DNA of 64,000 nt, taken from contig OX638152.1 in NCBI GenBank assembly GCA_951804945.1, positions 97,588,001 to 97,652,000 on the forward strand. Direction: 5' to 3'. Below, in pieces: positions 21,970-51,500 of the stretch (positions are counted from its first letter, which is position 1; every line of letters starts with the position of its first letter). The notes under the pieces are model-generated. The model was not told where the DNA came from and ran no database searches. It saw only the letters and a program-made list of their open reading frames with translations. A program made the translations under genes and the position numbers. The stretch comes from Podarcis cretensis (Eukaryota).

Positions 21970-24900
21970 TAATTTGTTATTTATACCCCACCCATCTGGC
22001 AGGGTTTCCCCAGCCACTCTGGGCAGCTTCCAACAAATATTAAAATTCAATGGTCTGTTAAATATTAAAAGCTTCCCTAAACAGGGCTGCCTTCAGATGT
22101 CTTCTAAAAGTCTGGTAGTTGTTTTTGTCTTTGAAATCTGGTGGGAGGGTGTTCCACGGGGCGGGTGCCACTATCGAGAAGGCCCTCTGCCTAGTTCCCT
22201 GTAACTTGGCTTCTCGCAGCGAGGGAACTGCCAGAAGGCCCTCGGCACGGGACCTCAGTGTCTGGGCTGAACAATGGGGGTGGGGACACTCCTTCAGGTA
22301 TACTGGGCAAAGGTGGTTAAGGGCTTTAAAGGTCAGCACCAACACTTTGAATTGTGCTCGGAAATGTACTGGGAGCCAATGCAGATCTTTCAAGACCGGC
22401 GTTATGTGGTCTCGGCAGCTGCTCCCAGTCACCAGTCTAGCTGCCGCATTCTGGATTAGTTGTAGTTTCTGGGTCACCTTCAAAGGTAGCCCCATATAGA
22501 GCGCGTTGCAGAGTCCAAGTGAGAGATAACTAGAGCATGTACCACTCTGGTGAGACAGTCCGTGGGCACGTAGGGTCTTAGCCTGCGTACCAGATGGAGC
22601 TGGTAAACAGCTGCCCTGGACACAGAATTGACCTGTGCCTCCATGTGCAGCTGTGAGTACAGAATGACTCCCAGGCTGCACACCTGGTCCTTCATTGGCA
22701 CAGTTACCCCATGGAGGACGAGGGAGTCCTCCACACCTGCTCCTTAAGGCAGGCTTGCAGTCACCAAAATGGAATGTCTATTTGCCATTTGGAGGCAAAG
22801 CGGCTCTGAAGTCTTAGCTTTCAAATGATTGACTTGACTGTGATTAATTCTCATTTAAACATCTGGCAAGTACAGATTACAACCTTGTGTTCTGAGTACT
22901 TAAAGAAGAAAAGTCACTTGATCCAGGGACAGTCCACATATATATATATATATTGGCTATTTCCAATCTCTTTTTCTTAATGGTGACTGCTGCTGCTGCT
23001 CAGGCTGCACAGAAATAGCATTTTGATTCCTGAAATTTATTCCAATTGTACAGATAAAATATAACTGATAGAATTCTATCAGATGGGGTATTAGTATGTG
23101 AAAGCAGTCCAGATCCAATGATCCCCAGGTGCTGGAGATACCGGGCACCATCCTGGTGCAAGTGGTTAAAAGCCAGGTGCAAAATGCGCCTGGTGCCCAG
23201 CTAATTTCGAACACTGTCTGGATGGCTCCCTATCCCTGTGACATAGAATTTCAGGGGTTTAGTGACAGGAAAGGGGGAGTCAATGAGAATTGCCTTCCTA
23301 TCTGTTCCCCAGCGGGAGAATCCCATGAACAGATTTCTGCTTATGGGATCAGAGGATTCAGGACTGTATCCTTTTTTGACACATGAATGTAAGTTGCGCA
23401 TGTAATGCGCATGTAAGTTGCACAGGATTTCAGTTTTCAAGTAAGTGTTCCAATTTGGGGTTGGTTCACAGCACGTTCCAACTTGGATTTCTTTATCAAG
23501 GATATTTCTTCAGCATGGAATTAAATGGCTTGCCTTTCAGCACTTGACAGCTATATTGGTACAGATAGTGCTAGAAGCACATTCAAGCACCACAGCACAT
23601 TCAAGCACTCTGTACTATCCTTGCCAGCTTCCTCAAAGGAACTACAAAATGGGGAAGTTCCCAAATTCAGAGGGGTCCACAGGCTGCTTCTGGCCTCATC
23701 AGGCTGTCGTTGAGCCGTTAACGCTCCAGGCGAAATCCTTTTGTGAATTGTTTTCCTGGCTTTGCTCCCTTGTAGCCGAAAGTAAGCTGCTGTTTGTGAA
23801 TTGCAGAGAGTGGAGAATGGGATCTTAACAGGTGGGATGCTTTGCTGTTATTCCGTAGGGAGCTAACCGAATGCGCGGCCGGTTGGGGAGCATGGACAGC
23901 TTTGAAAGGTGCAACAACCTCACGTCTGACAAAGTAAGTAACGGGCTTCGCGCGCGTGGGGGGTGGGGAAAAAAAGTGCAAAATTATGCTGGATATAGGA
24001 GTTTATTTGGGTTTTCCTTTAAAAAAAAAACTTGTGAGAAGCTCACTTTCTGATAAAATTATGGTTTGCTGGTGTCAGGGGCTCAGGAGCAGAGGCACAG
24101 GGGAGAGAGGAAATGGAGAGCGAAGGGGAAGAATCTGAGGGCAGCGTAGGGGAGTATGAGAGTGGCCCGAGAGATTCCATAAGCTTCTCCAGCGAATCAG
24201 AAGATTCCCAGAGGGGGGCGCCGACGGCCAGGGCAAGGGGGGTCCCAGGGGGGACACACCAGAAGCAAGGGGCCAGCGGGGACTCCCAAAGCAGCAGTGG
24301 GAGATCAGGACCGGCTCCTCCACCAGAGCATAGTGGGGGGGAAGAATCTCATGTATCAGGACCAGCTTCTCCTCCAGCAGGGAGAGAAGATGAATCAGGG
24401 CTGGCCACGCCTCCATCGCAGAGTGAGGGAACGGAGGGGGGGTCAGGTCCAGCTAGCCTCTCCGAAGGGGGAAGCAGTGACAGGAGCAGTGTAACGGTTA
24501 GGAGGAAGGTTGCTGGCTGGGCGCGCGCGCCAAGTTCAAATGTACAGGCGCGGGGCACAGCAGGTAACCCGGATTGGGAACCAGGTCCTAAAGCCCGCCG
24601 GAGGCAGGGGGAAGACTCAGGGGACTCAGCGTCAGAAGAGTCTAGAAAGGGCAAGACCCCAGCGGACAGGCGGACCCAGAGGAGGAAAGAGCAAAGGAAG
24701 AGGTGGAGCAAGGCTAGAGTCTTAAACTGGTGTCTGGGGGGTGGAGATTCAGACGGAGCTTCAGCGGTCTAGGGTTTAAGACGTAGGGCTGCACGCCGCG
24801 GCTTTGAAATCGAAACTGCGTTTCAATAAAGACTTTTGTATATAACAATGGACTGGCGTTGGTCCTTTGTGAGCTGGGACCTCGGGCAGCCCTGACAGCT

Positions 24901-26452
24901 GGCTATTTACTTTTACAGGCAAAACAAAACAATAAGTAGCCTAATAGTGCTTGAAAACTGCCCTTTACCTTGTAAGCTTATGGCTGGTTAGAGTCACTGC
25001 CTGGCAAACCAGCAGGGGAGAAGGTCTAAATTGGAAGAGACATTTGTGGTAACTAGACGGCTTGGGGGAAAAACAAGGAGCAGTGATGCAGGGCCGATAT
25101 TTTATTTCTTGGTGGAAAAACATTCCGTTTCATAAATTCATTAGTCAAAAACAATGGGTGCCAACTGCAAATACATATTAGGAAAGGCTAAGTTTTTAAG
25201 CTTAAAAACTTTAAAAAAAACTTAAAAACTTTTGTTGTTGTTTAGTCGTTTAGTCGTGTCCGACTCTTCGTGACCCCATGGACCAGAGCACGCCAGGCAC
25301 TCCTGTCTTCCACTGCCTCCCGCAGTTTGGTCAAACTCATGTGGATAGTGTTCTTGAAGCTACCAGCATGAGTTTGACCAAACTGCAGGAGACAGCGGAA
25401 GACAGAAGTGCATGGCGTGCTCTGGTCCAGGGGGTCACGAAGAGTCGGGCACGACTAAACAACAACAAAACTTTTTAAGCTTTGTTTAGTAAATATAAGT
25501 AAAACAGAAGTCTGAATTGGGTCATTCTCTAGGGCGCAGAGGTGGGGGACCGGCCCACCTTCCATGGGGCAAAAATATTTGGGCTTGAAATGCAAGGCCA
25601 GTGGAGGGGGTGGCCTGGAGAGAGGGCTCCCTTTGGCCCCTGGGCCTCAGGTTCCACACCACTAATGTAAGAGGATCTTTAGTTAGCTGAATTGGTTAGA
25701 GCGTGGTGCTGATAACGCCACGGTTGTGGGTTCAAGCCTCCTGCATATTCCTGCATTGCTGGGCGTTGCACTAGATGACTCTCAAGAACCTTTCCATCAA
25801 TTCTAAAATCCTACTTGCTTTTATGAGGGTAAACAGAATAACTCATTGCCAATTGAAATGAAACCTACTTAGGGGAAGTAAGCATGTAAAGCAGAAAAAA
25901 AACCTGAAAGCCCTTGTTTATCCCAGTTGATAAAGGTAAAGGTACCCCTGCCCGTACGGGCCAGTCTTGACAGACTCTGGGGTTGTGCGCCCATCTCACT
26001 TAAGAGGCCAGGGGCCAGCGCTGTCCGGAGACACTTCCGGGTCACGTGGCCAGCGTGACATCGCTGCTCTGGCCAGAGCCAGAGCCAGAGCCGCACACGG
26101 AAACGCCGTTTACCTTCCCGCTGGTAAGCGGTCCCTATTTATCTACTTGCACCCGGACGTGCTTTCGAACTGCTAGGTTGGCAGGCGCTGGGACCGAGCA
26201 GCGGGAGCGCACCCCGCCGCAGGGATTCGAACCGCCGACCTTTCGATCGGCAAGTCCTAGGCGCTGAGGCTTTAACCCACAGCGCCACCTGCGTCCCCTA
26301 TCCCAGTTGATACATGTCTCTTAAACAATGACATTTTAAATCTGTCATCCTTTGCCGTTAGCCTGCCTGTGCAGCATGTGTAAACAGCTCCTTGTACATT
26401 TTCCATTTATTTCCTCTTTTACATAGCAATTCCACACACACACACACACACA

Positions 26453-48523: not shown

Positions 48524-48559
<36 letters not shown>

Positions 48560-51500
48560 CCAGGGAGGACCTTCCCAACACATCCTTACTTCTCTGCTCA
48601 ATTAGGAGCAGGGCAACTCTCCCTCTTCAATCTTCTGAAAGCTTATTCCTTGCTGGACAAGGAGGTGGGCTACTGCCAAGGTATCAGCTTTGTAGCTGGG
48701 GTGCTGCTCCTCCACATGAGTGAAGAACAAGCCTTTGAAATGCTCAAATTCCTCATGTACGACCTCGGCTTCCGGAAGCAGTACAGGCCGGACATGATGT
48801 CACTACAGGTAAGGCAGAAATAGGCTTCTGCTTGGGAGAAAGATGTTACACTGGGAGTTGGGGGCAGCACTGCAGAAGGCTCATGAACTAAATGTGGCCT
48901 GCCACCTGGTTCCCTTTGGTTTCTGATCTCTCGTCGTACTCAGAACAACCTCTCTTACCACCGTTTCCTGTATTGTCCCTTAAAAGTTCCCATTGGCTTG
49001 TTGGGCATCTCCCTTCCCTATGTTTTTCTCAACCACCTCAGCAGTTTACACTGAAGTGAAGGACATAAGGCAGGAGTTGATAATGCAGGTGAGCTGCGCA
49101 CAGGTCAGCTGCAAGCAAGCTGCCAGCCAGCTCTGTGGAGGCTCCTTTTATTGACACAATATGCAAACCCAGGCAGATAGATTTTGGGCTGTGACCTTTA
49201 CACATCTTCCGGTCTCGAGATCGTGGGGTGGTACAAAGTTATTTTGGAGCCTGTTTCCACCGTGTCATTTTCCCCTTGCACAATGTATGACGAAGGAGAC
49301 AAAGGTTTCAGACAGGACATGGCAGACTACTGAGATCGCAAAAGGTTAGACAGAGGGCAAGATGTTCAAACAGCTATGACTATCTGTGAGGGGGAGTGTG
49401 CCCCGCACCCCAAGGTAACGCGTGCAGGCAGCTGAGGCTGCCTGCGGGCGGGGAGATTGCTCCATACCCAGCGATCATTCCTACATACACTACTATTCAC
49501 CGCATACTCTGCTGGCAAATATTCTGCTGCTCCATGACTTTATTAGGTACCTTCAGTGGAAGCGATGAATGAGAGGAACACGGTGTTAGAAGCTAGCTCG
49601 CTTTTTGGCCGGGTTTCATCCTCGCTCAACTTGTTGCAGCGGCAAAGTGAGAGGCCTGCAGTTAGAAACTTGGATCCCAGGAAGCAGCTTATAAAGTCAA
49701 GAAGCATGCATAGAGCCGAGCTGCTGATGTAGCAAACTATTCCCTCCCTCAGAAATAGTGTCTTTCTTTAAGTGTAAACCTCTGTTGGCAAAGTAATAAG
49801 ACGTGGCAGCTGATCAATATCTCCCTGCTTTTCATTTCTCAATTTTGAGGGAGAGCTGTGCAGATCCCTCCCTCCTCTGGTTGGAATTCCTAAGACAAAT
49901 TCCAGAGTGCTAGTTCACAGGAGAGTACTCTGTTTCAACATAGTTTATCAGTTAGAGTAAGGGACAAACAACACATTATTTGGGAGATCTGTGATCATTT
50001 TCTAGCTTAGAAAAACCAACCTGAAATACAACCTTGGGTGCTGCGAATCTGAAAAGCTGCCTGCATTAGTGACTGTGACCACTTCTTATGGCAGTGAATT
50101 CTAGCTATGCGCATATACACATGTGGCCACACCTTCTGGACAGACCAAGCATCATGTGAACAGCAGCCACAGGGAGAGGGGACCCAAACAGCCTCAGGGT
50201 TTCCTCCTGAGGAAACTGTGATAGCAGGTACGAATTGCACAAGAAGTCAGAGAAATTCTTAATCTGAGCCAGTGTGGTGTAGTGGTTCAGAGCGGTGCAC
50301 TCGTAATCTGGTGAACCGGGTTTGCGTCTCCACTCCTCCACATGCAGCTGCTGGGTGACCTTGGGCCAGTCAAACTTCTCTGATGTCTCTCGGCCCCACT
50401 CACCTCACAGAGTGTTTGTTGTGGGGAAGGAAGGGAAAGGAGAATGTTAGCCGCTTTGAGACTCCTTCGGGTAGTGATAAAGCGGGATATCAAATCCAAA
50501 CTACTCCTCCTCCTCCTCCTCCTCCTCCTCCTCCTCCTCCTCCTCCTCCTCCTCCTCCTCTTCTTCTTCTTCTTCTTCACTCTCCCATATTTTAATACAG
50601 ATCCAGATGTACCAGCTGTCGAGGCTACTGCATGATTATCACAGAGACCTCTACAACCACCTTGAAGAGAACGAGATCAGCCCCAGCCTTTATGCTGCCC
50701 CCTGGTTTCTGACTTTATTTGCTTCGCAGTTTCCATTGGGATTTGTAGCCAGAGTGTTCGGTAGGAAGCTTTTCTATGTATTGGTTGGGCAGATCAATAA
50801 TAGGCCCCTCCAAATTGGTGGTTTCATTGGGGGGGGTGGTTCCTATTCCGCAACATGCCTTTGACATAATCATAGTGCCTTTAGTGACAGATTTATACCA
50901 GACCAGCCACATTTTATTCTGCTTTACGCTGGCTAACATACATTGGCTTATTTGACATCAGCTTCTCATGTGTAAGAACAGTTCCCTAATTTGTGTGTGT
51001 ATGTAACAAAACATCATTTTGAGTAGTTTGGGCACTCCTTCTGCACTAGAACAATTGTTTAAGACTTCTTTTTTCCTGAAACTAATCCTTCTGCAGGAAT
51101 TTTTTAAAAGTGTATTGCAGGAACACAATTTACATTTCATTAGATCTTGGGCTATGGTGATGGTTCACTGATGCTAACCAAGCCATGTGTTGTGCTTGGA
51201 TTTTACTTGAGAAGACACGACACATTTTCTTGACTTGGAATACTAAAGCATTTGTGATGTATATGTTAATTATAAAACATGTTTTTAACAGATAAGTGTA
51301 AGAACACAAAAAAATGACTTTTTTATCCCCTTGAATCTTCAACATAAATATGTATAGAAAACAACGTTTTAAATGGGAAACACAATCTAATCTATGTTTT
51401 GTTCTCTGCCCTAGACATTATATTTCTTCAGGGAACAGAAGTCATATTTAAAGTAGCACTAAGTTTGCTAAGCAGCCAAGAGGAACACATCATGATGTGC

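Follow-up and report, generated by a model that had tools for sequence, protein, structure and literature searches.

The window, a stretch of 64,000 nucleotides from Podarcis cretensis (contig OX638152.1), contains a solo LTR flanked by GCTGG on both sides, with TG..CA termini and perfect 8-bp inverted ends (Table 1), so that the clean LTR hallmarks described in the original prediction hold. Its orientation was taken from the PPT and PBS of the full-length parents L031 and L032. The ATG at 24113 (LTR base 41, context GAAATGG) opens a frame of 219 aa with its stop at 24770-24772; the ORF is intact as predicted, its product has the four repeats and basic C-terminus reported, and the Arg-rich motif is real, the Arg-rich end of the ORF being conserved in the family. 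The same frame is already open from LTR base 2, giving 232 codons. Both sequence boxes noted after the stop are present (TTTAA at 24775, AATAAA at 24825), but TTTAA is not conserved among subfamilies and lies behind the self-primer, and it was rejected as a TATA box.

Table 1. Features of the solo LTR in the window (window coordinates).
Feature	Position	Strand	Remarks
Left target-site duplication	24068..24072	+	GCTGG
Solo LTR	24073..24897	+	825 bp; subfamily A, Tf1/sushi-type Ty3/gypsy chromovirus
Predicted U3	24073..24750	+	from self-primer position and Tf1 mechanism (in the part of PMC4600332 available)
Stop-free run	24074..24772	+	232 codons plus stop; corresponds to 3' end of pol in full-length parents
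ATG-ORF	24113..24772	+	219 aa; ATG is an internal, non-conserved Met codon
Arg-rich stretch, then VLNWC	24668..24733	+	L-x-W common to the distant H/L lineage
CTTAAA, TATA-like box	24721..24726	+	30 nt 5' of predicted start; overlaps L-N codons
Self-primer	24751..24761	+	11 nt, AGACGGAGCTT; complementary to PBS of full-length parents; predicted 5' end of R
Polyadenylation signal	24825..24830	+	AATAAA
Right target-site duplication	24898..24902	+	GCTGG

A possible first coding exon (23871-23939), with a GTAAGT donor (23934) 140 nt 5' of the solo LTR, lies on the same strand as exons of a RabGAP-TBC domain further downstream (48524-48820 and 50481-50861, + strand), and the LTR may lie in an intron of a TBC-domain gene. 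Retention of the intron after this exon could read into the LTR ORF and use the LTR poly(A) signal. Four short peptide motifs of EVI5-type proteins, looked for as a clue to the host gene, were absent.

A long ORF could be a by-product of the purine-rich, T-poor composition of the LTR within a young family: the T-poverty against which the original prediction cautioned is real (86 T among 700 bases), and copies within a subfamily are 94-99% alike. Among 5000 dinucleotide shuffles of LTR bases 1-700, however, an ATG-ORF of at least 219 aa arose in 4 and a stop-free run of at least 232 codons in 36; such ORFs are therefore infrequent in composition-matched shuffles, the comparison that had been proposed, and T-poverty alone rarely accounts for this one. 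No Pfam family matches the 219-aa ORF, and a single ESM Atlas match at 0.75 was uninformative.

The family search, run on a genome of 1.5 Gb with 19 large contigs, produced 3166 first-look candidates; those that were scored, 40 in number, were 97-100% identical. L031 and L032 carry gag, GGGAAAC at the gag/pol overlap, PR-RT-RH-IN, a Tf2-type SH3, a degenerate chromodomain and a PPT; no env was found in either, and intact elements show only gag and pol as long frames. Pfam searches with P0001, L093 and L032 returned the pol order PR-RT-RH-IN and a gag with capsid and CCHC knuckle, and the best PDB match was the Ty3-G Gag-Pol (E 1e-132). The TG..CA LTRs, the PPT, the short target-site duplication (5 bp in 44 of 49 subfamily-A LTRs classed as solo), the lack of env and the domain order are those of Ty3/gypsy elements (Metaviridae). 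The class of the full-length parents, which the original prediction had left to be identified, is on these features that of a young, abundant Ty3/gypsy chromovirus of Tf1/sushi type without env, and not a retrovirus.

The pol frame of these parents continues into the LTR. In subfamily B (L173-L179), seven of the nine full elements fetched have a stop-free pol frame of 1563 codons that opens upstream of the protease and extends 631 nt into the 3' LTR, the others having 1562 and 1877 codons. All five elements fetched for subfamily E have a stop-free frame of 1556 codons, a length also found by hand count in 59 of the 150 rows listed, which include 5' and solo LTRs. Read backwards from U3, the frame stays open as far as the chromodomain in 13/13 E, 10/20 A and 10/25 B 3' LTRs. 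Of the 3' junctions sampled in A and B, roughly every second one is out of frame (11/20 are in frame in A). The frameshifting indels at A junctions are scattered and differ from copy to copy; 20 of 21 change 1-2 nt within homopolymer runs, for the most part the PPT's G runs. We tentatively read the out-of-frame junctions as decay or assembly slips in G runs. L093 also has a frame into the tail (1312 codons), but it owes this to an internal deletion and was left out of the count of intact elements. The UniRef Pol proteins P0001 (1498 aa), P0008 and P0012 of Podarcis muralis have the same C-terminal tail but a Thr in place of the Met encoded by the ATG; the tail's named relatives come from P. 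muralis and P. lilfordi. The ORF of the window very probably represents the last 232 codons of pol, read through the PPT into the U3 of the 3' LTR. A lizard retroelement protein encoded in the LTR, as originally proposed, does exist in the sense that the ORF is real, family-wide and selected, but it is in frame with pol and does not stand alone; the idea of a separate accessory or regulatory gene fails because the pol frames of sister subfamilies, stop-free over 1563 and 1556 codons, have this tail as their end. L181 holds gag and pol in a single 1877-codon frame, and tandem elements with one common LTR (PPT before, PBS after) occur at L178-L179, L116 and L141.

The ATG of the ORF is dispensable. 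The position is ACG in 15 of 83 scored subfamily-A LTRs and GCG or GCA in all three of subfamily F, and the 22 LTRs of subfamily E have no Met in the first 30 codons. MMTV sag, nef and foamy virus bel are coding sequences in the U3 of the 3' LTR, duplicated in both LTRs; they are separate genes with their own start and a spliced mRNA, whereas the lizard ORF is fused to pol and lacks a conserved start, in an element without env.

The tail might nevertheless also, or mainly, be made as a separate Rev/Rex-like or regulatory protein from a spliced subgenomic RNA, with its donor (GTAAG) at the U5/PBS border, an acceptor just behind the chromodomain, and translation beginning either at the U3 ATG or at a Met of the acidic spacer that is in frame. 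GTAAG does follow the 5' LTR in subfamilies A, B, C, E and F, a pyrimidine tract with CAG followed by in-frame ATGs is found at LFTPT in 6/6 elements scanned (by a crude ad hoc score), and an ATG with G at +4 is retained in most A, B, C and D LTRs. However, this acceptor has the top score in none of the elements scanned, in E, F and C2 the first ATGs are out of frame, E, F and the P. muralis proteins lack the ATG, and the distant H/L and K lineages (below) have another PBS border. The joint from U5 to the acceptor was likewise absent among 10 joints listed from four RNA-guessed contig runs of another organism, and among 15 of 30 joints in a second set; the contigs do include sequence related to the family, but this is weak evidence in that contigs show no starts, strand or level. 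We consider a spliced product of this kind improbable. The tract and CAG behind the chromodomain (L032:5973-5995 and equivalents) form a possible splice pair with GTAAG.

Selection was assessed in one natural copy per subfamily (n=8, at most 37% apart), where F and G rest on one intact copy each and B, D and E were found through a protein search, which favours open frames. For the pol frame the median pairwise omega is 0.38 (0.29-0.51), whereas the two remaining sense frames have medians of 1.91 and 1.17, and a codon model gives 0.365 for the tail (lnL -3043.6 versus -3090.3 at omega=1). Coding indels are multiples of three in 6/6 cases, those after the stop are single-base in 4/4, and the tail has no stops where 16.8 would be expected, over at least 440 substitutions. 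ORF retention, indel frame and dN/dS, the checks proposed at the outset, all point to purifying selection on the tail as protein. Composition could hardly keep the frame without a stop across such representatives when 3-11 stops are present in the other sense frames. The frame dependence of omega and the nature of the indels refute the by-product reading, to which we give virtually no credence. One antisense frame is also stop-free in the window's subfamily, with no stops in the A, B, D and F representatives and an omega of 0.43, and could be the selected one; its third positions, however, coincide with those of the sense frame, 4/8 representatives have 1-2 stops in it, and its omega is higher than that of pol. 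We rejected it as a shadow frame, and selection for an antisense product is very unlikely indeed.

How much of the tail is functional is a separate matter. Its omega (0.37-0.45) is far above that of RT/RH/IN (0.04-0.19) and similar to that of the acidic spacer (0.42-0.81), so that much of it may be linker. It could be translated with Pol as a mostly tolerated linker, with selection merely keeping the frame open until a stop close to the end of the RNA, which would for instance spare the RNA a long 3' UTR and nonsense-mediated decay, and also preserving composition and overlapping promoter signals. Consistent with this are the omega of 0.57 in the middle of the tail, large in-frame deletions (51 and 69 nt), low complexity and predicted disorder, and a stop at a fixed 21-24 nt behind the self-primer start in subfamilies A-G and the H/L lineage. 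Yet codons 1-45 have an omega of 0.19 and the basic part one of 0.40, the Arg-rich end recurs in three lineages and L-x-W in two, and L312 and L313 retain the Leu through a CTT codon, which removes the TATA-like TTA. Constraint at the DNA level is added in the last 20 codons, where promoter and self-primer coincide with coding sequence. We regard a mere linker as a possible but rather unlikely account.

The predicted transcript makes the arrangement clearer. A tRNA-type TGG is absent from the PBS; its 11 nt are instead complementary to an LTR site about 147 nt from the LTR end. This self-primer matches the PBS at 10-11 of 11 positions in 35 of 38 LTRs followed by GTAAG, the three misses having no PBS-like sequence and being likely solo-LTR flanks, and five primer/PBS variants covary. 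Self-priming is described for Tf1/Tj1 and the Tf1/Sushi group in the portions of PMC4600332 and PMC6317226 available, and the pairing indicates, at the sequence level, that the lizard family self-primes in the same way. From the self-primer, transcription is predicted to start at 24751. CTTAAA, 30 nt before this point, is a box found in 7/8 subfamily representatives whose promoter function is inferred; on this prediction U3 (24073-24750) would be nearly all coding, with the stop inside R. As the predicted start lies behind almost the whole ORF, a solo LTR could not express the ORF from its own promoter. The LTR of the window appears to be a recombination remnant with its ORF upstream of its own predicted promoter, and expression from a solo copy would need an outside (host) promoter. 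Solo LTRs would thus spread the sequence, as originally suggested, but hardly the protein.

Self-priming and domain order mark the family as Tf1/Sushi-type. It shares with Tf1, Tj1, Sushi-ichi and the V-clade, as covered in the available parts of PMC6317226 and PMC4600332, gag, a pol of PR-RT-RH-IN with Tf2-type SH3, a chromodomain-like region, an LTR-complementary PBS, a 5-bp target-site duplication and the lack of env. It differs in a chromodomain that scores below the Pfam cut-off (Chromo, E 7.6e-4 to 0.067), and its U3 is T-poor whereas that of fish Sushi is T-rich (in the section of PMC3601003 available). The chromodomain is 31% identical to a canonical one (P0043), with the aromatic Y/W/Y positions replaced; degenerate as it is, it is still conserved (omega 0.10-0.16). 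Behind it lies a conserved segment (L204:5755-5960 and equivalents; LFTPT, SYWWD) with an omega of ~0.2-0.3 and no Pfam match, and the H/L lineage has FW..F and F.GF repeats in this place.

We propose that the genomic RNA would start at the self-primer (24751) and that Gag-Pol would be made by a -1 slip at GGGAAAC, a putative frameshift site as in PEG10. The tail would be translated only from the U3 copy at the RNA 3' end and would stay on the integrase as a long, acidic, disordered C-terminus ending in a basic helix; this Arg-rich end would anchor the integration complex on chromatin or mediate its nuclear import. An AlphaFold2 model from a 5-row alignment was uninformative (mean pLDDT 35, with SH3 and chromodomain unfolded too); the Arg-rich stretch is the sole helix predicted in the LTR-coded part of this low-confidence model. 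Arg-rich motifs mediate RNA binding and nuclear import in Rev, Rex and Tat. A tether or import role is suggested by the plant CRM precedent and the HMGN-like RRSARL of the K lineage (both below), and by arginine-anchor tethering, described for viral proteins in the part of PMC9040877 available, and by the loss of chromodomain aromatics in the window's clade. Against it, the Arg-rich stretch of the window (subfamily A) has no match to the HMGN motif, and the H/L lineage has a tail but at most a slight bias to contig ends. We judge this role to be evenly poised between true and false; the explanation as a whole, a pol 3'-end ORF encoding a probably disordered integrase tail with such an Arg-rich end, seems likely from the sequences compared.

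Other chromoviruses also have Pol ends coded in the LTR. When 1.84 billion proteins were searched with a profile, just 4 of the 150 matches listed covered the LTR-coded part; the search also gave distant Pol ends of similar layout (P0054, P0055, and P0060 from Vipera latastei), whose relatives in the P. cretensis genome confirmed the layout at DNA level. In the H/L lineage, LTRs of 405-435 bp have 100-109 LTR-coded codons (omega 0.29), the last of which form an Arg-rich stretch and LLCW; a self-primer, again of 11 nt, precedes the stop by 24 nt. In the K lineage (L303, L304), 117 LTR-coded codons end in RRSARLKA (L303:6791-7145, minus-strand count), identical at 7/8 positions to the HMGN nucleosome-binding consensus (acidic-patch motif RRSARLSA in the part of PMC13347269 available), and the chromodomain looks canonical, keeping W and GY; L302 is out of frame at the PPT. 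Among 20 such loci, L305, L310, L317 and L318 could not be scored because they are broken or rearranged, and the frame of L311 is disrupted. The window's clade, H/L and K are well separated in an RT-RH-IN tree of sequences gathered here only, from which nine rows without core motifs were dropped. An LTR-coded Pol end is common to three deep chromovirus lineages. Other SH3+chromo proteins have a median of 43.5 residues after the chromodomain (78 tallied among matches listed), and at least 150 in 8/78, several apparently unrelated read-throughs or fusions; the lizard family has ~390, of which 210-234 are LTR-coded.

The closest known parallel is in plants. In CRM group A (CRM, Beetle), the pol frame passes the PPT into the 3' LTR, and the LTR-coded part is the integrase C-terminus, held to be a targeting domain in the available parts of PMC3059260 and PMC3605345. 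The lizard family has the same frame past the PPT, but in an animal host, with self-priming where CRM has a tRNA-Met PBS, with a chromodomain remnant 5' of the PPT where the available CRM text places the CR motif downstream of it, and with some subfamilies biased to chromosome ends or telomeric repeats where CRM is centromeric. By sequence it resembles group A in layout and is not a member.

To our knowledge, within the literature searched, a selected LTR-coded pol layout has so far been known from plant centromeric retrotransposons alone. No vertebrate LTR-coded Pol tails are described in that literature, whose scope excludes Repbase, subscription papers and supplements, where the frame may be noted; the available portions of PMC11011659, PMC3601003 (one section) and 10.64898/2026.09.17.752431 contain nothing on such tails. 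The family would be a vertebrate Ty3/gypsy lineage with up to 85% of its LTR as selected protein-coding pol, and its U3 would combine the roles of enhancer and coding sequence. The ORF is present, together with a poly(A) signal, in thousands of solo LTRs, where host promoters could capture it, and in annotation such LTR ORFs should be taken as pol ends and not as accessory genes.

The distribution of insertions differs between subfamilies. Against an expectation of 2.5%, 33/147 A, 74/144 B, 4/40 C and 18/55 placed E copies lie within 1 Mb of a contig end (31 more E copies are on unplaced contigs), as do 8/83 of H and 1/95 of L; these are counts of top-scored candidates and not a census, with contig ends taken as chromosome ends. 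The bias is seen at both contig ends, and telomeric arrays were present at 2/8 contig ends read. In subfamily E, which is very young (99.4% alike, with many stop-free pol frames), 8 of 22 host-flanked LTRs, from loci not picked by position, sit in (TTAGGG)n, and in stretches chosen at ends or clusters the junctions are nearly always GTTAG/CTAAC, in both orientations and in interstitial arrays too. Copies with this target-site duplication in telomeric or interstitial (TTAGGG)n (L186, L187, L191, L196, L197, L201, L223-L238) are located at chromosome ends, at C3:121.8-121.9 Mb and C9:78.85 Mb, and on unplaced contigs. Telomeric E LTRs comprise 21 haplotypes among 35 (overlapping loci kept), and E copies may have been amplified by telomere recombination.

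Young subfamilies with different tails, dispersed, subtelomeric or inside telomeric repeats, coexist in one genome and form a natural comparative series for integrase site choice. Possession of a tail is not enough to determine telomere targeting, since H/L have one and show at most a slight bias to contig ends. A bolder proposal, which we offer as speculative and rather doubtful, is that the squamate U3 is a coding module for a variable integrase tether, convergent with the CR motif of plant CRM, which in the window's clade took over from a chromodomain without its aromatic cage, and that tail divergence steers subfamilies to subtelomeres (A, B) or to (TTAGGG)n (E). If so, E would be a vertebrate LTR retrotransposon targeting telomeres. 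The young subfamilies are also a candidate source of telomere and interstitial-telomere variation in lizards.

Telomere-inserting retrotransposons are known from several groups (SART/TRAS, MoTeR1, Zepp1, GilM/T, Athena and the anole Tx1-1_ACar, in the part of PMC10088271 available), and E likewise has copies inside telomeric repeat arrays. E differs from these in being an integrase-using LTR element, found in both orientations and also at non-telomeric sites. The literature searched, with Repbase and subscription journals outside its scope, describes no LTR element in vertebrate telomeric repeats. The telomere inserters listed are LINE or Penelope-like and not LTR elements. Several insertions of A, B and C (L024, L026, L175, L147, L149, L153) lie in one short repeated motif of another dispersed repeat, which suggests a local site preference.
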